DNA of 64,000 bases, taken from Herpetosiphon llansteffanensis. GTDB lineage: Bacteria > Chloroflexota > Chloroflexia > Chloroflexales > Herpetosiphonaceae. This document shows, one piece after another, positions 8,120 to 61,193 of this stretch; within the stretch, counting starts at the first letter, position 1; every line of letters starts with the position of its first letter. The stretch spans positions 1-64,000 of the forward strand of contig NZ_PUBZ01000089.1 of assembly GCF_003205875.1 (NCBI RefSeq), given 5' to 3'. Made by a program: the position numbers and the translations under genes. The notes beneath the pieces are model-generated. The model was given only the letters and a program-made list of their open reading frames with translations. It did no database searches and was not told the DNA's origin.

Positions 8120-9901
8120 TTGTCCCCTTCAATGAAACTTGATGTAGAAAGTGTAGAGGCAATGTCTACGTTAACCTATCCACACCTGCCCGCGCCCTTC
8201 GAAATCATCGGGGCTTGCGGCAAGCAGTCGAGCCATCGGCGTTTTTTTATGGCCAAAAAATCGGGCATTCCCTACTTGGTTTGGTGGGAAAGCCGCATTC
8301 CCGATGCCTTGCGTAAACAGCAAATGGTGGTGCAAATTGCCGAGCAGGCTGGGAGCGAAGTCGCTATTTTAGATGTTCAGGCCTTGTCGTTGCAACAACT
8401 TTTGGATACAGCTGGCAGCCTGCCTGCACCAGTTGCCGCTCAATATGCCTTGGGCCTGATCGAAACAGCCGAATTTAATCATCGCCAACGAACTGCATTG
8501 ACGAGTAGCAATCTGTATGGGCCAAACTTGCTCGACCTTGGTTCACAAGGCACGATTGTGCCAAAAATCGATTCCAGCTTGGCTCAAAAAGCCGCGCCAA
8601 TTCCAGCTCAATTATTGCCAGTCAACGAACAGCCAAACTCGCAAACCGATAGCTATTATATCGGAGCCTTGATTGCGTGGATGATGAGCGGCCAATTTGC
8701 CCCGCAAGGCAATCCTTTAGCCATGCTGCCAGCAATCGATGGCCGCCTAGCGAGCATTTTACAACGCGCCACTGCCGCCAATCCAAAACAACGACCAAGC
8801 GCCCAAGAGCTTGGCCAACTCATCCAAGATTGGTTATCGGGCAAAGTTACCGAAGCTGCCAAAAAGAAACCTTCAAAGCTGAAATGGGTGGTCGGTGCAA
8901 TTGGCACAGCAATCGTCACCTTCTTAGTCATCTATGGTTTATCGCAGCGTGATAAACCTGCTGATACTGAGTTTGGGCAGGCCAAAGCCAATGGTCCAAG
9001 CACCGATTTCCAATCAGACAAACCAGGCACAGGTTTGGCCATGCTCACTGATGTCAATGAAGTTGAGATTAATCGCATCGATGATACGGGCTATCCCGAC
9101 ATTGATATGTATCTGAGTATCATGCGCCCGACGGGGGTGATAACCGATGTGCCACGCCAAAATGTTAGCGTCTTTGAAAATAATAATAAAATTGAAAACT
9201 TCTCGTGGGTTAATCTCTCGAAGATTCGTGATCCGCTGAATATTATGTTGGTGATGGATACCAGCGGCAGCATGGGGCCAAGTAAAGAAGGCTTAACCGA
9301 TGGCGGTTTAGATGCAGCCAAAGTAGCAGCCCTCGATTTTATCGAGCGCCTGCCATCAAACACCAATCTTGGCTTAATTCACTTTGGCACGATGGTGACG
9401 GTTGATCACTCATTAACCGATGATATTGATGCAGTGCGCCAAAGCATTACCGAGCTTAAAGCCGAAGGCCAAACTGCGATTTATGATGCCTTGGCAATTA
9501 GCTACACCCAATTACGCCGCGCTGAAGGCCGCACATTCATCGTGCTGATTTCTGATGGCGCTGATACCGCCAGCAAGGGCGATAATTACGATAGCATTGT
9601 GGCTAAAGCTGCCAAAGCCAAAATTCCAACCTATATTATTGGCTTGACCAGCCCAGAATTTGATGGCAAATTGCTGGAAGATTTGCAACGCGATACCAAA
9701 GCCATGATCTACCAAACCCCATCCAAAGAGCAATTAACCAGCTTCTATGGCGAGGTCGCCCAAGAGGTTGCTGGCCAATATCGGGCAAGTTTCAGCGTGC
9801 CAGATAGCTATACAAGCGGCGCTGGAATTACGCTCAAGGTCGAGGTCAACGCTGGCGATGGCCGCTTAGTTACCAAAGAACGCAACTATAACAAACCTTA
9901 A
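8120..9901 (+). CDS. Ser/Thr pseudokinase-like domain, TM helix and von Willebrand factor A (vWA) domain protein
   Basis: The N-terminal ~250 aa have a kinase-like layout (FEIIGACGK degenerate G-loop, a PSAQELGQLIQDWL-like C-lobe) but no HRD or DFG catalytic motifs. A TM segment (WVVGAIGTAIVTFLVIYGL) follows. The C-terminal vWA has a MIDAS motif (VMDTSGSMG ... FGT ... LISDGADT). The start is uncertain; ATG 8132 and 8162 are alternatives. Confidence 0.6.
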   Translation: MSPSMKLDVESVEAMSTLTYPHLPAPFEIIGACGKQSSHRRFFMAKKSGIPYLVWWESRIPDALRKQQMVVQIAEQAGSEVAILDVQALSLQQLLDTAGSLPAPVAAQYALGLIETAEFNHRQRTALTSSNLYGPNLLDLGSQGTIVPKIDSSLAQKAAPIPAQLLPVNEQPNSQTDSYYIGALIAWMMSGQFAPQGNPLAMLPAIDGRLASILQRATAANPKQRPSAQELGQLIQDWLSGKVTEAAKKKPSKLKWVVGAIGTAIVTFLVIYGLSQRDKPADTEFGQAKANGPSTDFQSDKPGTGLAMLTDVNEVEINRIDDTGYPDIDMYLSIMRPTGVITDVPRQNVSVFENNNKIENFSWVNLSKIRDPLNIMLVMDTSGSMGPSKEGLTDGGLDAAKVAALDFIERLPSNTNLGLIHFGTMVTVDHSLTDDIDAVRQSITELKAEGQTAIYDALAISYTQLRRAEGRTFIVLISDGADTASKGDNYDSIVAKAAKAKIPTYIIGLTSPEFDGKLLEDLQRDTKAMIYQTPSKEQLTSFYGEVAQEVAGQYRASFSVPDSYTSGAGITLKVEVNAGDGRLVTKERNYNKP

Positions 9902-48949: not shown

Positions 48950-49330
48950 GTATATCACAAAGGACGCAAATAACACCAAGGCTTTTTAGCCACGAATTCC
49001 ACGAAAGACGAAACCGCGAAGAGCGCGAAGACCGCCAAGGCTTTTTAGCCATAGATTGACACAGATTATTAGGATTATGTTCTATGTTCTATGTGTACTG
49101 GTTCATAGCATTAACCATCGCCTGATCCCCTCACCCCAACCCCTCTCCCGTGCGCGGGCGAGGGGCTTAATCGTGCGATTCTATCGCGATGCGTGATAGA
49201 AAACGGTCGGCTCCCCCTCGCCCGCGTGCAGTGGGAGAGGGGGTTGGGGGTGAGGGGACATGATCGCCAATTCAATGAACCAGTACATCTATGCTCTTCA
49301 TCCCTCATCCCTCATCCCTCATCCTTCACT
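48950..49330. repeat. Mosaic intergenic repeat cluster with a second copy of the palindromic element
   Basis: Motifs tttagccacgaattccacgaaagacgaaaccgcgaagagcgcgaagaccgc and catccctcatccctcatccctcatcc, plus a 135-bp palindrome at 49124-49258 that is near-identical to 1896-2029. Confidence 0.8.
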
Positions 49331-52723: not shown

Positions 52724-53398
52724 CTAAGCAGGCTCTAGCAGGTTTAAATCAAAGATGCGGCTAAAAATCCGAATAACTCGTTGTTGCACATCGCTCAAAG
52801 CTGGCGCGACCGGCAAAAGCTCGGCCAACGACGTTACGCCATAATCGTGAATGCCACAGGGCACGATGGCCGCAAAATCATCCAAATTGGTCGTAACATT
52901 CAGGGCAAAGCCATGCGAGGTAACGCCACGGGTGTTCGAGCGCACACCAATCGCGGCAATTTTGCGATCGCCGACCCAAACCCCGGTATAGCCAGCAAAG
53001 CGCCGCGCACTCAGGCCATATTCCGCCAGCAGTTCGATAATCACTGCTTCGAGCATGCGCAGATATTGGTGTAAATCGCGGCCATGATCGCGAATTTGCA
53101 AAATTGGGTAGCCCACCAACTGGCCTGGGCCATGATAGGTAATATCGCCACCGCGATCAACCTCGATTAAGGCTGCGCCGCGTTGTTGCAAGCTTTCTGG
53201 GCTGACCAACAAGTGATCGTAGCCGCCAGAACGCCCAATCGTGTAGGTTGTTGGGTGCTCCAACAACACCAAGGTATCGGGAATAGTATCGGCGCTGCGT
53301 TGGCTCACTAAGTTGCGTTGCAAGTCCCACGCAGCTTGATAATCGAGCATGCCAAGAATTTGCACAGCCAATTGGCGTTGCACTTGTTGAATCGTCAT
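52724..53398 (-). CDS. lipB: Octanoyltransferase LipB
   Basis: RGGDITYHGPGQLVGYPIL, K in PCGI..., and LipB-family length. Confidence 0.85.
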   Translation of the reverse strand: MTIQQVQRQLAVQILGMLDYQAAWDLQRNLVSQRSADTIPDTLVLLEHPTTYTIGRSGGYDHLLVSPESLQQRGAALIEVDRGGDITYHGPGQLVGYPILQIRDHGRDLHQYLRMLEAVIIELLAEYGLSARRFAGYTGVWVGDRKIAAIGVRSNTRGVTSHGFALNVTTNLDDFAAIVPCGIHDYGVTSLAELLPVAPALSDVQQRVIRIFSRIFDLNLLEPA

Positions 53399-53829
53399 AA
53401 AGGCATCAAGCTAATCATATCGCCGCCGAATGGTGATGGTTGGCTCAGCCGAGCGCCATAGGTTGCTGGTTCGCTCGCCGCCCAATCTACATAATCGGCG
53501 CTATATTGGCCATTAAAATAGACATGCACCACTTGATTGTGGGTCACGCGGCTCATCGCATCCCACACTTCATTATCGTCGTGGGAATATGCCACCAGCA
53601 TGGCACGCTCAGGTGCAAATTCATCTTCCTCTGGCGGAATCACCAAGCCCAGCCATTGATTCGGATAGCGGGCTTCGATGATTTCGATGGCTTCTGTATG
53701 GCCGCGGGTTTCCATCGCGGTATAGGGGCAACCACAATTGCAACTCACGCCACATTCGGCGGTGCCACATTTGCCGGTTGAAACGCGTCCGCCGTGGTCG
53801 GCAGTGGTTAATTGAATTAAAACAGGCAT
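53395..53829 (-). CDS. Hypothetical Cys-rich protein translationally coupled to lipB
   Basis: N-terminal Cys cluster CGTAECGVSCNCGCP and an ATGA overlap with lipB. Confidence 0.45.
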   Translation of the reverse strand: MPVLIQLTTADHGGRVSTGKCGTAECGVSCNCGCPYTAMETRGHTEAIEIIEARYPNQWLGLVIPPEEDEFAPERAMLVAYSHDDNEVWDAMSRVTHNQVVHVYFNGQYSADYVDWAASEPATYGARLSQPSPFGGDMISLMPL

Positions 53830-54018
53830 AGCTTAAACTCACAAATTGAGAACAAACGCTCTGCGAGCATGATAGCACAATCAGCTTATTTGCAACCAGA
53901 TCGCTAGCAATTAAGGAATTTCTGCTATACTAGCACGCTAGTTAGCCGCACATTGCGCGCAAACCTAGTTGCTTATGCTCCGTCAATGCCAAGCAATCAA
54001 GCGGAGGTACGATACACA

Positions 54019-54594
54019 ATGAAGAGTGTTGATCCAACCCAAGCATCCTTAGCACCGGAAGATGCCGAGGCCCTGCTGCGCAGCTTGCAAGCTCGTTTTG
54101 AGCAATTCATGCAGCGCCATCCAACGCTGGAATGGGCCAAGATTGAAGCAAAACTTGCAGCCCAACCCGCCAAACTGTGGTCGCTCAACGAAATGGAGCG
54201 TACTGGTGGCGAGCCAGATGTGGTTAGCTACGATGCAGCAAGCGATCAATATCTGTTTTACGATTGTTCGGTCGAAACTCCTAAATATCGCCGTAGCATC
54301 TGTTATGATCGCGAAGCGCTGAATGCGCGCAAAGAACATAAACCAGCAACCAGTGCCCAAGATATGGCAGCGGAAATGGGGATTGAATTGCTGAGCGAAG
54401 CAGATTATTGGGCCTTGCAACAGCTTGGCGCATTCGATACCAAAACATCAAGCTGGCTTCAAACCCCACCTGCAATTCGCGATCATGGCGGCGCGCTCTT
54501 CGGTGATTATCGCTACAAACATGTTTTTATCTATCATAGTGGTGCAGATTCATATTATGCGGTACGCGGCTTTCGTGGCTTGTTGCGCGTCTAA
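54019..54594 (+). CDS. Conserved hypothetical protein
   Basis: ATG 54019 with a GGAGG RBS; ~190 aa, coding periodicity consistent with the window. Confidence 0.45.
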   Translation: MKSVDPTQASLAPEDAEALLRSLQARFEQFMQRHPTLEWAKIEAKLAAQPAKLWSLNEMERTGGEPDVVSYDAASDQYLFYDCSVETPKYRRSICYDREALNARKEHKPATSAQDMAAEMGIELLSEADYWALQQLGAFDTKTSSWLQTPPAIRDHGGALFGDYRYKHVFIYHSGADSYYAVRGFRGLLRV

Positions 54595-54650
54595 AGCCAG
54601 CTTGTTTAATATCGCGGCATCCTATGCTACGCCAATAGAAAGGTCGATCA

Positions 54651-55766
54651 ATGGTTGGACGTGAACTTTATCGGTTGTTGCAATGCCCTACCTGTAACTC
54701 ACGGGATTTGGCGGTGTATGCTGAGCATGTGCTATGCGCTGGCTGCCGCAACGAATATCCCATTCACAAGGGCTACATTGATTTAATGCCGCGCCAAACT
54801 GAATTTGATTATATTTCAAAATATGTTTCCGAAGAAGAAAGCATGGGCGAGGAGCTTGATTATCGTGAGATGGCTCCCCCATTGCTGGCAGCAGGCGTGC
54901 GCCATCGCCAAATTCGGCGCATGTTGGCGCTCAAGCCCACTGATATTGTGTTTGATAATGCTTGTGGCAATGGGCGCTTTGGCTTGTGGAACGCTGATGC
55001 GGTTGGCTTGATTGTTGGCAGCGATCCAGCGGTGCTTTTCGCCGACCAAGCGCTAGCCGAGATGGAATTGGCCCAAGCTGATTCGCGGCGCTTGCCATTT
55101 GTCGATGGTGCATTCGATAAATCGCTCTCAGTCGATGTGCTCGAACACTTCCCGCGCGACGTGATCCACGATTATTTGGTCGAAACTGCGCGCGTGTTGC
55201 GGGTTGGCGGTCGAGTGGCAATCTTCTCGAATACCCGCGAAATGTCGCCAATTCAGCCGATCATCAATATTTCCAAGCGCTTGGGCAAATTCTTTGTCAA
55301 GCAAGGCGTTTACGATTTCGAGCGCGAAGCACGGCGTAAATCCGACCACATCAAAGACCTCAAAACGTGGGATGATGTGGAAGCGGCCTTGGTTGAAGCA
55401 GGCTTGAAGCCGGTTAAAGTGGTATTTTGGAATAGCGTTTTCACCTCATTTGTCGAGCATGTGCTGATGAAACTGGGCGAATCGCTGATTGCTAAGCGCA
55501 AAACCGCCAAAGCCACCATTGCTCCGGTGCTAACCGATGAGGCCGTCAATGCCTCGGCTGGTGCCCAACGCGAAATCGTGGCCCGCCGCGCAATGCGTCG
55601 CCACCTGACCAAAAACTCGCCAATTTATTGGGCGCTATATCTGGTCACACTGCTGATGGAGCTTGATTTGTGGTTGTTTGGCTGGATGCGCACCGGCCCG
55701 TATTTTGTGTTGGCCGAGAAGGTCGAAGGCCGCTATGTGCCAGCGCCCTTGCCCGCCGAAGAATAA
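54651..55766 (+). CDS. Class I SAM-dependent methyltransferase with N-terminal Trm112-like zinc ribbon and C-terminal hydrophobic tail
   Basis: CPTC..x..CAGC zinc-ribbon; motif I VFDNACGNGRF; motif post-II VDGAFDKSLSVDVLEHF; C-terminal helix IYWALYLVTLLMELDLWLFGWM. Confidence 0.7.
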   Translation: MVGRELYRLLQCPTCNSRDLAVYAEHVLCAGCRNEYPIHKGYIDLMPRQTEFDYISKYVSEEESMGEELDYREMAPPLLAAGVRHRQIRRMLALKPTDIVFDNACGNGRFGLWNADAVGLIVGSDPAVLFADQALAEMELAQADSRRLPFVDGAFDKSLSVDVLEHFPRDVIHDYLVETARVLRVGGRVAIFSNTREMSPIQPIINISKRLGKFFVKQGVYDFEREARRKSDHIKDLKTWDDVEAALVEAGLKPVKVVFWNSVFTSFVEHVLMKLGESLIAKRKTAKATIAPVLTDEAVNASAGAQREIVARRAMRRHLTKNSPIYWALYLVTLLMELDLWLFGWMRTGPYFVLAEKVEGRYVPAPLPAEE

Positions 55767-55773
55767 AAAAAAA

Positions 55774-55808
55774 GCCCTGTTGCTCAGTTGAGCAGCAGGG
55801 CTTTTTTT
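55774..55808 (+). terminator. Strong rho-independent terminator, probably bidirectional
   Basis: A10 run, stem gccctgttgctca / tgagcagcagggc, T7 run. Confidence 0.8.
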
Positions 55809-55855
55809 GGTTAATCGAATTTCTATTGTTATACAGATAATAATCCCATCAAACA

Positions 55856-55885
55856 TTGACAGTTCACATATTCAATTGCTATAGT
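55856..55885 (+). promoter_or_regulatory. Near-consensus sigma-70 promoter for the OLD-like gene
   Basis: TTGACA, 18-nt spacer, TATAGT, ~45 nt upstream of ATG 55931, in AT-rich DNA. Confidence 0.4.
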
Positions 55886-55930
55886 AAGTTTAACGCTTTT
55901 TTGTAATAATTTACATAAAAAGGAACTACT

Positions 55931-57691
55931 ATGAGCAAAGTAACTATTACACGTATTGAATTTAAGAACTTCAAAGCTTTTTCTCGCTATTCAATCTCCC
56001 TGAGCAAGATGAATGTTTTAGTTGGCCCAAATAATTCAGGTAAATCAACAATTCTTAATGCAATTCGCGTATTAAATGCTGGTATTCGGCGCGCAAATGC
56101 CAAAAATGCAGTTCCTGTAGCAGGTCCAGAAGGCTATACATATGGCCATATTATTCCAACCGATAGTATACCAATCTCATTGGAGAATGTTCATACAAAT
56201 TACGATGAAAGTACGCCTACAACAATTATTTTTCATCTATCAAATAATACAAAATTAATGTTGTATTTTCCAATTGATGGTAATCCTGTGTTCATCCCCA
56301 TGGATGGCTCTAAATCCGCGCGAACTGCCAGTCACTTTAAAAAGATTTTCCCTCTAAAAGTAGATTTTGTGCCTGTTATGGGACCAGTAGAATATAAAGA
56401 GGAATTGATTAGTAAGCAGACTGTTCAAAATGGTTTAGTTACGCATCGTGCTTCACGCCACTTTAGAAATTATTGGTACTATTTTCCAGAAAAATTTGAG
56501 GATTTTTCAGAAAAAATTAGAAAAACTTGGCCCGGAATGGATATAAAATTTCCAGAAATTATTGATCATTCAAGTTTAGTAATGTTTTGTAGTGAAAATA
56601 GGATTGACCGTGAAATATATTGGTCTGGCTTTGGATTTCAAATCTGGTGTCAACTAATGACCCATATTGTTCGTTCAAGCGATGCAGATCTTCTAGTTAT
56701 CGATGAACCAGAAATATATTTACATCCAGACCTACAACGACAACTCTTATTTATTTTAAAAGAAATACAGCCCAATATTTTGCTTGCAACTCATTCAGCT
56801 GAAATTATATCTGAATCTGACCCATTAGATATTGTTATAATTAATAAAAGCTTAAATCATTCTCAACGACTAAAAGATATTGACCAAATTCAACATGCAA
56901 TGAATATATTAGGATCAAACCAAAATATTGCATTAACGAGGCTATCAAAAACAAGAAGAGTTTTGTTTATTGAAGGTGATGATTTCAAAATTTTAAGTAA
57001 ATTTGCTCAAAAAACAGATTTCCCTGAATTAGTAAATAAGATAGATTTGACAGTTGTTCCGATCAAAGACTTCGTTCGATGGGAAGATGTGCGATCATTG
57101 ATATGGGGCATCGAACAAACCCTTGGAACATCTCTAGCTTTAGGCACAATCCTTGATCGAAATTATCGTTGTGATGAAGAAGTACAATCTATCCATAATG
57201 AATTAAAAAGTAATTTAAAATTCCTGCATATTTATAAAAGAAAAAATATAGAAAGTTATTTAATTAATATTGATGTTATTGATAGAGTTCTCAAAAAGAA
57301 GCTCGTTGACAATCCAGAAAATCCAAATATCTACACTGAAAATTTTATAACTATCTTGAATACAATAACAGATACATTGAAACCCGAATTTCAAACGCAT
57401 TATATTTCCAATCGAATCAAATTTTTCAATAAATCATCATTAGATCAAACAAGCATTATAAATCAGGCATTACTATCATTCGAAGAACAATGGATTGATA
57501 TAGAAAAAAGGATGAATTTAATTGATGGCAAACTAGTGTTATCTGAAATTAATACCTATTTACTCAATAAATATAATATTACTATAACCAATCAAAATAT
57601 TATTTCAGAATTCAAACCAAACGAAATACCCGAAGAGATAGTACAATTATTTCGTAATCTAGATAGATTTCGTCGAATGCCGATCCAATAG
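55931..57691 (+). CDS. OLD-family-like ATP-dependent endonuclease (ABC/AAA_21-type ATPase plus C-terminal Toprim/DUF4435-like domain); putative defense gene on an AT-rich island
   Basis: Walker A VGPNNSGKST and Walker B/D-loop LLVIDEPEIYLHPDLQ. The C-terminal region has VLFIEGDDFK, a later acidic cluster and an IESYL motif, as in Toprim-like OLD/DUF4435 domains. GC content is far below the window average. Confidence 0.6.
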   Translation: MSKVTITRIEFKNFKAFSRYSISLSKMNVLVGPNNSGKSTILNAIRVLNAGIRRANAKNAVPVAGPEGYTYGHIIPTDSIPISLENVHTNYDESTPTTIIFHLSNNTKLMLYFPIDGNPVFIPMDGSKSARTASHFKKIFPLKVDFVPVMGPVEYKEELISKQTVQNGLVTHRASRHFRNYWYYFPEKFEDFSEKIRKTWPGMDIKFPEIIDHSSLVMFCSENRIDREIYWSGFGFQIWCQLMTHIVRSSDADLLVIDEPEIYLHPDLQRQLLFILKEIQPNILLATHSAEIISESDPLDIVIINKSLNHSQRLKDIDQIQHAMNILGSNQNIALTRLSKTRRVLFIEGDDFKILSKFAQKTDFPELVNKIDLTVVPIKDFVRWEDVRSLIWGIEQTLGTSLALGTILDRNYRCDEEVQSIHNELKSNLKFLHIYKRKNIESYLINIDVIDRVLKKKLVDNPENPNIYTENFITILNTITDTLKPEFQTHYISNRIKFFNKSSLDQTSIINQALLSFEEQWIDIEKRMNLIDGKLVLSEINTYLLNKYNITITNQNIISEFKPNEIPEEIVQLFRNLDRFRRMPIQ

Positions 57692-57694
57692 CAA

Positions 57695-58717
57695 TTATTC
57701 GCAGCATTCATCGTTTTCGTGGCGCACGATCATGCTAATTGGTAGGATTGTGTTTTCGCTGCTTGGCGTTTTGCCTTCGATCATTTCGATCAACACATTG
57801 GCGGCGGTTGTGCCCAAATCGTACATTGGCTGGTGCAGCGAGGTCATGCTGGGGTTGAGGCTGGCAGCAGTTGGCACATCATCAAAACACACCACGGTTA
57901 TATCATCGGGAATCCGTAGCCCAGCTTCATGCAAGGTGCGCAATACCCCAGTTGCCATCACTGCACTGCTGACGAACAACGCGGTTGGGCGTGGTTGCAA
58001 AGCCAACAGTTGCTGAATCGCGCTTTGACCGCCGTGCTCGCTCTCTGCGCCAGTCACAATCAAGGCTGGGTGAATTGGCAAGCCGGCCTCACGATAGGCC
58101 TGTTGATAGCCCTCAATTTGATCGTGGCTAGCTGGAGCGTGCAATGAGCCAATAATCATGCCAACCGATTCATGGCCAAGTGCCAGCAAATGCCGCACCG
58201 CTTGATAGCTGCCAGCAAAATGGTCAATATCAACCGTCACGATATGGTGCAAAAGCGGGTGTTTGCCAACCAAAACCATCGGCACACGATCAGCAATCAG
58301 CTGCGGCAGCAAGGGATCATTGATCGTATTAGGAATTACGATGCGGCCATCGACGCTGCGGCCATGCAGCAATTTGGTCGCTGGATCATCAGCCCGATTG
58401 GCGCTATCGAGCGAGACCATCAAAACGTAGCCCTTGGCATTACAGGCCTCGGTCATGCCTTGTAGCAAATTCGAGAAGGTCGGATTGCGAAAGATCGTCG
58501 CGGTGGTTTCGGAGATAAACACAGCAATAACTTTGGGGCGTTGCCCAGCCAAGGTTCGGGCCGCTGCCTGCGGCGTATAATGATGCTCCTGCATCACTGC
58601 CAAGACCCGTTCGCGCACCTCGGCGCGCACATGCGGCTGATTGTTCAGCACCCGCGAAACAGTCGCGATCGAAACCTGAGCAATTTCGGCAATTTGTTCA
58701 ATCGTAATTGATGGCAT
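57695..58717 (-). CDS. LacI-family transcriptional regulator
   Basis: HTH IEQIAEIAQVSIATVSRVLNN plus a periplasmic-binding-protein-like effector domain. ATG 58717 is the chosen start. Confidence 0.8.
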   Translation of the reverse strand: MPSITIEQIAEIAQVSIATVSRVLNNQPHVRAEVRERVLAVMQEHHYTPQAAARTLAGQRPKVIAVFISETTATIFRNPTFSNLLQGMTEACNAKGYVLMVSLDSANRADDPATKLLHGRSVDGRIVIPNTINDPLLPQLIADRVPMVLVGKHPLLHHIVTVDIDHFAGSYQAVRHLLALGHESVGMIIGSLHAPASHDQIEGYQQAYREAGLPIHPALIVTGAESEHGGQSAIQQLLALQPRPTALFVSSAVMATGVLRTLHEAGLRIPDDITVVCFDDVPTAASLNPSMTSLHQPMYDLGTTAANVLIEMIEGKTPSSENTILPISMIVRHENDECCE

Positions 58718-58851
58718 AATCCGACCTTCTAAACAACTTCTATTTGGAATGCTCGAAACCGCGTCCAAGCCTGATGGCGCAATATTTGCTGCGCTTGCTA
58801 CGGCGATGGGATCGGTTCCGAGATTCGTGCTGCGTGCTCCTGCGAATATGA

Positions 58852-59829
58852 TTAATTGGCCTTGAGCCAAGCCATAGTTGTGGCCAGCAATTGACGGGCA
58901 AACGTGCGCACAACATCAGTGTCATAATTGCGGTAATAGCATTCGATTGCCATAACCAAGGCCAAGTAGAGCGAATAGAGTTGGCAGCGTTGTTCTTCTG
59001 CAGGCGTAAAGCTTATTTTGCCATAGCCATGCATAAAATTGATCAGACTTTCGCCTGAGAAGGGGCGAAATTGGGCTTCCATCAAGGGATCGCCCCATAA
59101 CGCCCGTTCAAAATCGATAATCCCAACAATCGTGGAATCGCGAACAAAGAAGTTGCCATTCCAAGCATCCCAATGCACTAACTGAGGCGTAGTCACTGCA
59201 TCCAAGGCAGCGGCATGCGTGAGCACAGCGGTACGAATCTCTGCATAGCTATGATCAAATTCAACATTTTTGCGCTGACCATCGACAAGCAGGGCATCAA
59301 TGAGCTTAATAAACGTGGCTCGCCAAGTTGTGCCGCGCAATTCGGGGTTGCCTTCGTAGCCAAAATAGCTGCCGCTAAAGCTATTAATCTGGTGCATAAT
59401 TGAACCAATTTGGCGATCAAGCTCAGCTTGGATGCTTGGATCAAGCGTTGCCCGTATCTGCTCAAGGTTGGTGCCAGCAATTTTTTGCATAAAAAAATAA
59501 GCTGAATCACACATGCTCAAGGTGTCGTCGAAAAAGGCGATGCTTGGCACCGGAATCGCTGGATTTTGCTGCACCAAGCGCATTGCTGCAACTTCGGTCT
59601 GCATAATGTTTTTTTCGTAGCTCATCACATCGGCGGTTGGCGGTGGGGCAATTTTGAGCACAAACTCGCGACCATCGGCCAATGTAACCGCATAGGCGGC
59701 ATTGAACCAACCATCTTTGAGTTCTTGAACTGCGTCTGCATGCGGCGCAAGCTGCATCCCAGCAAACGCATGGGCAGCCATTGCAGCAATTTGTTGGCGA
59801 GTTTTGAGATTTTTGGTCGTGCTGTGCAT
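58852..59829 (-). CDS. Phosphotransferase enzyme family (APH/choline-kinase-like) small-molecule kinase
   Basis: Brenner motif LVHWDAWNGNFFV and a DFE-like IDFERAL motif. ATG 59829 has an AAGGAA RBS. Confidence 0.7.
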   Translation of the reverse strand: MHSTTKNLKTRQQIAAMAAHAFAGMQLAPHADAVQELKDGWFNAAYAVTLADGREFVLKIAPPPTADVMSYEKNIMQTEVAAMRLVQQNPAIPVPSIAFFDDTLSMCDSAYFFMQKIAGTNLEQIRATLDPSIQAELDRQIGSIMHQINSFSGSYFGYEGNPELRGTTWRATFIKLIDALLVDGQRKNVEFDHSYAEIRTAVLTHAAALDAVTTPQLVHWDAWNGNFFVRDSTIVGIIDFERALWGDPLMEAQFRPFSGESLINFMHGYGKISFTPAEEQRCQLYSLYLALVMAIECYYRNYDTDVVRTFARQLLATTMAWLKAN

Positions 59830-60188
59830 TGGAGTTCCTTTCGCAATCATGGCGCTACGCCAGATTAGCCCAGTGAACATTGCTGCTTAAATAAAACACT
59901 CCCAGCGCAGCAGCCCTCATCGGGAGAATCAAGGCCAATCCGCTGGAAGTGCAAGGAGAGTATGCTTCGAACACGCGAGGCTTGCGAATCTCGGTTTTTG
60001 GAATGTGTTTGCCGCACATGCTCCAAAGACCATTATCAGACGAAACGCTGAAGCAACGCTTGTGTTTCTGAAACGTTACAGAAGTATAGCACAGCAATGC
60101 TGCTGATGCAATAGACTTATTACAATGATTTGAATAACGCGGCACAACTGCTGCTATAGCCAATTCGGTAAAAATAGACGGGGATTGT

Positions 60189-61193
60189 ATGAACTATCGC
60201 GAATATCGCATTCCTGCGCCAAACGTGCGCTCGTTATGCTGGAAGAATAATAGTTTGATCGATTGGGTTGCTGGCGGAACGCGCTATCAGCTTGATGGCA
60301 AGATCAAGCGTTCGACCACGGTCTATCCTTATCCCTTTGATGCAGCGGTGCAATCGGCCTCAGGCGAAGTGGTGGTCATCTATCAACGCTTGGGAACCAA
60401 GGGCTTGGTGCTGAAAAATGGCAAAATTGTGCGCGAAATTAATCGCAGTTATTACTACGCCGATAGCTATGAATACCCGATAGCCATATTGCAACATGCC
60501 GATTTAAATGATGTGCTGCTCCACTGTCCCGATAAGCACAACCAGCTTGATTTGGAGGATGTAGCAACCGGACGGCGGTTGAGCGAAGGCTGGAAGCGCA
60601 AACCAGTCGATATTTTTCATTCGCGCTTGAGCGTCAGCCCCAAAGGCACATGGGCGGTGAGCGCCGGTTGGCAATGGCAGCCAGCGCATACCGTGGCAAT
60701 CTACAAAGTTGATGAGCTATGGTCTGAGCCACAAATTCTCGATACCGAAGGCTTTTGCCCACCAATCAAAGTTGATATTAGCTCGGTCAGCTTTTTGGAT
60801 GAACAAACCCTGCTGATCATCACCGATGAATTTGCCAACCTCAATGCAAATTTGGTTGATACGCTGGTGCAGCGGCGTGGAGCGCATAGCATCGGCTACT
60901 ACGATTTGGAAAATCGCCAGTTTCGGGCAACCGTTCAGGTCGAAGAAATCGTGGGCACGGCCATGGCCTTAAATGAGCGCTATGTGGTCGGCTTCTTTGA
61001 TCATCCTAAATTGTTCGATTGCACAACCGGCAAAGTGGTGCAGCGCTGGCCAGAGTTGGCTACAGGCCGCCAAACCCACAGCATGATCGGCAGGCTCGAC
61101 CAAGCGCTTCCGCCAACCGCCTTTGATTCAGCCAACAAGCGTTTTGCCGTCGCCGATGATAACGCTATTACGGTGATTGAATTGGACGTGTAG
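60189..61193 (+). CDS. Hypothetical protein, tandem paralog 1
   Basis: Shares N-terminal Y(R)E(Y/D)RI..VRSL.W.NN.LIDW, central AVIYQRLGT and C-terminal ANQRFAVAD..ITVIELD blocks with the next gene. Confidence 0.55.
   Translation: MNYREYRIPAPNVRSLCWKNNSLIDWVAGGTRYQLDGKIKRSTTVYPYPFDAAVQSASGEVVVIYQRLGTKGLVLKNGKIVREINRSYYYADSYEYPIAILQHADLNDVLLHCPDKHNQLDLEDVATGRRLSEGWKRKPVDIFHSRLSVSPKGTWAVSAGWQWQPAHTVAIYKVDELWSEPQILDTEGFCPPIKVDISSVSFLDEQTLLIITDEFANLNANLVDTLVQRRGAHSIGYYDLENRQFRATVQVEEIVGTAMALNERYVVGFFDHPKLFDCTTGKVVQRWPELATGRQTHSMIGRLDQALPPTAFDSANKRFAVADDNAITVIELDV

Follow-up and report, generated by a model that had tools for sequence, protein, structure and literature searches.

A horizontally acquired one-gene island in Herpetosiphon llansteffanensis encodes a candidate stand-alone OLD-family nuclease

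The locus and its composition

We analysed a stretch of 64,000 nucleotides (nt) from the genome of Herpetosiphon llansteffanensis (contig NZ_PUBZ01000089.1, positions 1 to 64,000; hereafter the window), in which an AT-rich island carries one intact gene on the forward strand (Table 1). The product of this gene is identical (100%) to WP_110515067.1, which NCBI names 'ATP-dependent nuclease' in H. llansteffanensis. The island is acquired DNA, and it probably comprises one self-contained gene for a stand-alone nuclease of the OLD family, in which an ABC-type ATPase head is joined to an AriB-like (DUF4435-type) Toprim domain and a helical domain, with a candidate role in defence against phages.

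A first-pass annotation, made from the sequence alone, had described the open reading frame (ORF) and its upstream region as an AT-rich patch in a GC-richer window, and the base composition bears this out. The GC content of the segment is 31% compared with 51% elsewhere (z = -11.8), which places it below every one of 585 windows of the same size taken from the remaining sequence (mean 0.510, standard deviation 0.017, minimum 0.465). The 1-kb bins over the ORF have GC contents of 0.331 and 0.361, against approximately 0.46–0.55 in other bins, and GC at third codon positions of the ORF is 0.225. A near-consensus promoter, TTGACA-18-TATAGT, had also been proposed; the motif is present, agrees with the sigma-70 consensus at 11 of 12 positions, has a TG extension and lies within the acquired DNA, 46 nt 5' of the ATG. 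Since promoter-like matches are not enriched across the AT-rich stretch (11 seen, 9.7 expected), it is to be read as a plausible promoter candidate only.

Table 1. Positions of the island, its gene and adjoining features in the window
Feature	Position	Strand	Description	Basis
Bidirectional intrinsic-terminator hairpin	55767..55808		19-pair stem, counting A and T runs	Fold, inverted repeat I2, conservation
Acquired AT-rich segment	55816..57698	+	1,883 bp, GC 0.311, one gene	Homology breaks and GC
Sigma-70-like promoter candidate	55856..55885	+	TTGACA-18 nt-TATAGT, TG extension	11/12 matches
Shine-Dalgarno-like site	55920..55924	+	AAGGA, 6 nt before ATG	Read from sequence
Island ORF	55931..57691	+	ATG start, 586 amino acids (aa), intact	No frameshift or stop
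ABC ATPase head	55931..56860	+	Residues 1-310	Pfam and motifs
Toprim core	56957..57268	+	Residues 343-446	Strands 343-348, 374-378, 403-408, 431-434
C-terminal all-helical domain	57269..57688	+	Residues 447-586	AlphaFold2 model, predicted local distance difference test (pLDDT) mostly >90
LacI-family regulator gene	57695..58870	-	Convergent, core, outside island	Pfam LacI and Peripla_BP_3

A variable intergenic site

To compare sites, the neighbourhood of the upstream methyltransferase gene was fetched from related genomes and aligned to the window. The island segment is absent from the matching site in four other Herpetosiphon genomes, homology with relatives ending at 55807-55815 and resuming at 57699-57711. 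In H. geysericola the positions 53000-55815 and 57699-61000 of the window are collinear at 93% identity and separated by 34 bp, representing a clean empty site. In H. giganteus and Herpetosiphon sp. NSE202 the precise position of the island is occupied by an approximately 135-bp GC-rich palindromic repeat, while H. aurantiacus (DSM 785) has a different insert of 1.85 kb (L009 9157-11005) with two small ORFs of 238 aa and 188 aa; their hydrophobic N-termini suggest export, and neither has a Pfam match. The intergenic site following the conserved terminator is a variable spot with at least four states across the genus. Absence from four congeners, the clean empty site in H. geysericola and the foreign GC content uphold the earlier proposal of horizontal acquisition.

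The terminator itself, however strong, is not part of what was acquired. With its flanking A and T runs the hairpin folds at -31.3 kcal/mol (z = -6.55 against shuffled sequences), so the first-pass description of a gene standing just after a strong bidirectional terminator is correct, but requires one refinement: because the hairpin is kept in H. geysericola, H. giganteus and NSE202, all of which lack the island gene, it counts as core-genome DNA, which moves the start of the acquired DNA to approximately 55816. The right junction is uncertain within approximately 57680-57698. Neither terminal direct or inverted repeats nor an integrase were found at the island ends. A 25-nt inverted pair (I1) is located inside the two core flanking genes and is probably due to chance.

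The palindromic repeat found in the relatives' loci (L006 9165-9325; L008 ~9158-9320) is dispersed, and occurs in the window at 1895-2030 and 49125-49260, with arms CCCTCACCCCAACCCCTCTCCC / GGGAGAGGGGGTTGGGGGGTGAGGG, where none would be expected by chance. It looks like a repetitive extragenic palindromic (REP) element or a miniature inverted-repeat transposable element (MITE).

A widespread protein family

More than 120 full-length homologs (44-58% identity, 94-100% coverage) were retrieved by a word-indexed search, among them proteins from Paenibacillus, Geobacter, Grimontia, Archangium and Pyrinomonadaceae, and this family of approximately 590-aa proteins is widespread in at least seven bacterial lineages. 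When a profile of the C-terminal half was compared with 1.84 billion representative sequences, 2,118 clusters matched at E <= 1e-3 and 444 at E <= 1e-30. Conservation was assessed in an alignment of 35 members, including the island protein, and in a second, deeper one built from representatives that share less than 50% identity. In the former, the invariant or near-invariant motifs of the ATPase are GPNNSGKST, the THRASRHFRNYW helix, SGFGFQ, DEPExYLHxD and ATHS, and those of the Toprim domain are FVEGxxDF (E348, D351), FDRDY (D409-R-D411) and RKEIENYLL (K438-E439-x-E441-N442-Y-L). Residues E348, D351, D409, K438, E441, W521, G533 and K534 are also invariant in the deeper alignment.

Many entries of approximately 305-314 aa matched the C-terminal profile, which raised the prospect of a split, two-gene form. 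Several of them, picked by length (P0128, P0144, P0156, P0157 and P0181), begin inside the H-loop motif (M-ATHSTEI...) and are probably truncated gene calls, so they were discounted as a sign of such a form.

Domain architecture of the island protein

The N-terminal head is an ABC/AAA_21-type ATPase, as had been proposed: Pfam AAA_21 scores 79 bits (cut-off 27; 8.5e-22) and AAA_15 70.8 bits (cut-off 32.1; 2.1e-19). All four motifs quoted by the first-pass annotation are found, namely VGPNNSGKST (31-40), VIDEPEIYLHPD (255-266), LFIEGDD (345-351) and IESYL (440-444). The head comprises Walker A at G32-T40 (K38), H88, a signature-like SGFGFQ at 232-237, Walker B at D258-E259, an H-loop at H288, and an invariant three-helix insert containing the motif at 171-182 already listed for the family; K38, D258, E259 and H288 are invariant in the family, the pattern of an ATPase of the OLD-ABC type. 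Among PADLOC models the best match is Old (3.3e-23), and a phmmer search of PDB sequences retrieved GajA (3.8e-7) with an alignment that reaches VLFIEGDDFKIL, paired with GajA VLLIEGPSEKIL. In form the head is compact and SMC/Rad50/PtuA-like, PtuA being nearest.

This resemblance raises the question of whether the gene might be a housekeeping ABC ATPase of the RecF, SbcC or SMC type, serving DNA repair or chromosome maintenance, which we consider highly improbable and have rejected. Matches to SMC_N, RecF, Rad50 and transporter models are confined to the first ~50 residues, the P-loop or the Walker B region, with scores well under the curated cut-offs; the composition of the gene is foreign, its distribution is patchy and crosses phyla, and a C-terminal Toprim nuclease stands in place of a coiled coil. 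Grouping with RecF/SbcC and syntenic orthologs in relatives, which the first-pass annotation had set against its own proposal, were looked for and not found: the four congeners lack the gene at the syntenic site and the Toprim fold is present.

The C-terminal half has the features of the OLD family, that is a C-terminal Toprim fold with a Glu after strand b1 and a DxD motif after b3, and of the AriB nuclease, whose fold and acidic cluster (AriB E26/D30/D88/E90/E122) have counterparts here. The fold comparison aligns 188 residues to AriB, which exceeds the ~104-residue Toprim core. Predicted metal ligands are E348, D351, D409, N411 (Asp in 34 of 35 members), N439 (Glu in 34 of 35) and E441, and the helical domain contains the invariant residues Y491, F517, W521, R527, G533 and K534. 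The suggested Toprim/DUF4435-like resemblance of this region is borne out by fold and catalytic pattern, specifically in AriB-like form; combined with AAA_21 and AAA_15, these support the OLD-family-like ATPase/Toprim identity originally put forward.

Genomic contexts

Nine loci were inspected, comprising the window, two Paenibacillus species, Geobacter, a Pyrinomonadaceae genome and four metagenomic contigs. No neighbouring or partner gene recurs across them. Six of the nine have mobile-element, toxin-antitoxin or defence-like neighbours, including rve, IS21 and Y1 transposases, TIR_2, HEPN, HNH, an HSDR_N fragment and RelB/YafQ pairs. The hosts of the other eight copies are unrelated (flank GC 0.37-0.61), yet each copy is 6-17 GC points poorer than the sequence on either side; hence, a GC content lower than that of the host characterises the whole family, which fits frequent transfer.

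Within the window the island is flanked by genes for a DUF4256 protein, a methyltransferase, a LacI-type regulator and an APH-family kinase, which cannot be its partners because they are present in relatives without the island. The stop codon of the island ORF (57689-57691) is 3 nt from that of the LacI-type gene (57695-57697), with no terminator between them, whereas in H. geysericola, with its empty site, the shared bidirectional terminator adjoins the end of the LacI-type gene. Hence, the insertion probably causes convergent read-through. Alignment by eye gives a LacI-type C-terminus of ...DECCE* here and ...DECCDEEC* in H. geysericola; judging by this, the insertion probably remodelled the C-terminus at the junction, leaving it three residues shorter.

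Beyond the LacI-type gene, the APH-family phosphotransferase gene (58852..59880, reverse strand) is present in H. geysericola and H. aurantiacus and absent from H. giganteus and NSE202, and its region (58796-59884) constitutes a second presence/absence polymorphism approximately 1 kb from the island. Between these two genes H. aurantiacus has an additional ORF for a 451-aa multi-pass membrane protein (L009 12024-13379), which does not occur in the window.

Comparison with known ATPase-Toprim systems

Fused ATPase-DUF4435 proteins and stand-alone OLD nucleases have already been described (PMC9122126, PMC12392090), and an NCBI name is in place, so no new kind of system is needed here: the island protein is a stand-alone OLD-family or fused PARIS-like nuclease. 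Systems that depend on a partner can be set aside. Gabija GajA (Class 2 OLD) has an adjacent GajB/UvrD helicase; no UvrD/PcrA/Rep-like helicase is directly downstream in the window, the downstream gene being the convergent LacI-type regulator, nor is there one at any of the nine loci, and PADLOC GajA models match at most 6 of 22 C-terminal fragments from relatives. PtuA of Septu and retrons lacks a Toprim domain and acts together with an HNH nuclease, PtuB, whereas the island protein has a Toprim domain and no PtuB; no HNH gene lies beside it in the window, and one occurs ~1.4 kb upstream in a single locus of the nine. The first-pass observation that the usual partners, a GajB-like helicase and a PtuB-like HNH protein, are missing is therefore sound. 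For Class 3 OLD (retron I-B), no reverse transcriptase is found among the flanking genes, and an Rfam search of 55000-58500 gave only sub-threshold matches, all on the terminator hairpin, which argues that there is no retron-like RNA.

Two described classes remain closest. The protein might be a Class 1 OLD enzyme in the strict sense, resembling P2 Old, Thermus scotoductus OLD (TsOLD) and Vibrio cholerae OLD (Vc OLD) and acting as a nickase or exonuclease on phage DNA, a possibility that we entertain tentatively. The gene fits this class by context and length, being an isolated single gene without partners at nine loci, with 586 aa in the range of 500-600 aa (PMC12392090, PMC10568477); PADLOC Old is the best-matching model, the DxD-type motif and x-E pair are as in TsOLD (PMC7049728), and the NCBI name agrees. 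The architecture is not that of TsOLD, whose ATPase contains an inserted dimerisation domain and whose Toprim domain is not accompanied by a C-terminal helical domain.

Equally tentative is the suggestion of a strict fused PARIS protein (AriA-AriB in one chain, called Class 4 OLD in PMC12392090), which would sense Ocr-like anti-restriction proteins of phages and halt translation through cleavage of tRNA-Lys or related tRNAs. By nuclease fold and affinity to hidden Markov models, fused PARIS is nearest to the island protein. Such proteins are recognised by AAA_15 or AAA_21 together with Pfam DUF4435 at a 27-bit threshold (Rousset et al. 2022); the ATPase part is found here but the protein falls under the DUF4435 threshold. 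It is also ~100 residues shorter (586 aa compared with 694 positions of the PADLOC AriAB model), its ATPase head does not look specifically AriA-like and appears to have only a short three-helix insert in place of the AriA IS1 and IS2 bundle, and the motif of its family is DxD rather than the DxE of PARIS.

A further and somewhat unlikely interpretation is that proteins of the ~590-aa family form a clade of their own, as yet without a model, among OLD-family defence proteins made as a single chain, with a compact PtuA/SMC-like head and an effector consisting of an AriB-type Toprim and a helical part; the Herpetosiphon allele (DxN, NxE) would then be a naturally attenuated variant. If this were true, the effector, which could not be released as in two-gene PARIS, would have to be switched on within one chain, and this would be a new regulatory solution.

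Evidence against a functional defence nuclease

Several observations weigh against our interpretation of the island as a self-contained anti-phage nuclease gene. Pfam has no match in the C-terminal 275 residues of the island protein, where PADLOC AriB is marginal (E 0.074-0.11), and neither the family profile nor the deeper profile, built from representatives below 50% identity, finds a sequence-level match for the C-terminal half among solved structures in PDB. The AriB link is accordingly drawn only from the fold search and the PADLOC models, that is from fold and from other family members. The full-length model has a predicted TM-score (pTM) of 0.56 and its interdomain arrangement is uncertain. 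The defence role of the family is guilt by association, and three of the nine loci, including the window, have ordinary metabolic or regulatory neighbours. A tblastn search of a phage collection gave no homolog, and tblastn found only two full-length plasmid or chromid copies (both on Cupriavidus chromids), the gene being rare on plasmids, so that a prophage or plasmid origin is not supported. The island protein also departs from the family at seven alignment columns on which all 34 remaining members agree, and no other sequence has more than three such private changes; N442S and G380D are unique to it among the 35, and Asn at 411 and 439 may attenuate its nuclease.

Pfam models for the known Toprim families perform little better on the relatives. 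OLD-like_TOPRIM (PF20469) has no match in the island protein and sub-threshold matches in 7/22 and 7/26 relatives (best 8.3e-4), and DUF4435 likewise has none in the island protein and sub-threshold matches in 1/22 and 4/26. Matches of the C-terminal half to Med10, Fic and R255 were at chance level and were dismissed.

The two Asn residues arise from D411N (DxD to DRN) and E439N (KEIEN to KNIES), each found in the island protein alone among 35. Three of the seven private changes are among eight Toprim-motif positions (hypergeometric p ~0.013, computed by hand on positions picked after seeing the data). Active OLD enzymes carry Ser or Asn at a metal-B position (PMC7049728, PMC12392090), so E439N may be tolerated; D411N, which alters the DxD motif, is less easily accounted for. 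These substitutions could indicate a decaying or domesticated remnant, in which a toxic nuclease was disabled after transfer and any defence role is either lost or dependent on the ATPase only. The excess of private changes, a closest homolog of only 58% identity and the position among housekeeping genes favour such a remnant. We nonetheless regard it as unlikely, given that the ORF is full length, every ATPase motif is intact along with E348, D351, D409, K438 and E441, Ser or Asn is known at a metal-B position of active OLD enzymes, and the promoter-like site and ribosome-binding site are retained.

Proposed function and significance

The acquisition of the segment, the domain architecture and fold of its product, the conserved two-metal catalytic pattern, the lack of a partner gene and the spread of the family are directly supported by our comparisons, and on these we base the interpretation of a stand-alone OLD-family nuclease. 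By analogy with P2 Old, TsOLD, Vc OLD, GajA and PARIS (PMC10568477, PMC7049728, PMC12392090, PMC11464382, PMC12409363), we infer its anti-phage role, trigger, substrate and oligomeric state. On the model of P2 Old, Vc OLD, GajA and PARIS, the ATPase head probably forms a dimer when ATP is bound and has a sensing, transducing or regulatory role. On a cue from infection, the two-metal Toprim site would be unleashed on nucleic acid, cleaving tRNA in the manner of AriB or DNA in the manner of OLD and GajA, and phage replication would be blocked or the cell arrested. A release step like that of two-gene PARIS is precluded by the covalent link between effector and ATPase, which leaves conformational control.

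In a predatory Chloroflexota bacterium, the island provides a clean case of a one-gene, defence-type cassette placed at an intergenic site that varies among relatives. Attention is also drawn to a large family, represented by the 444 clusters (at 50% identity) that match at the stricter threshold, which is missed by Pfam DUF4435 and OLD-like_TOPRIM. Within the ATPase-Toprim group, stand-alone OLD nucleases and fused PARIS proteins have received the least study, and a tractable family whose AriB-like effector shares a chain with the ATPase could reveal how nucleases of this sort are restrained without a separate partner.
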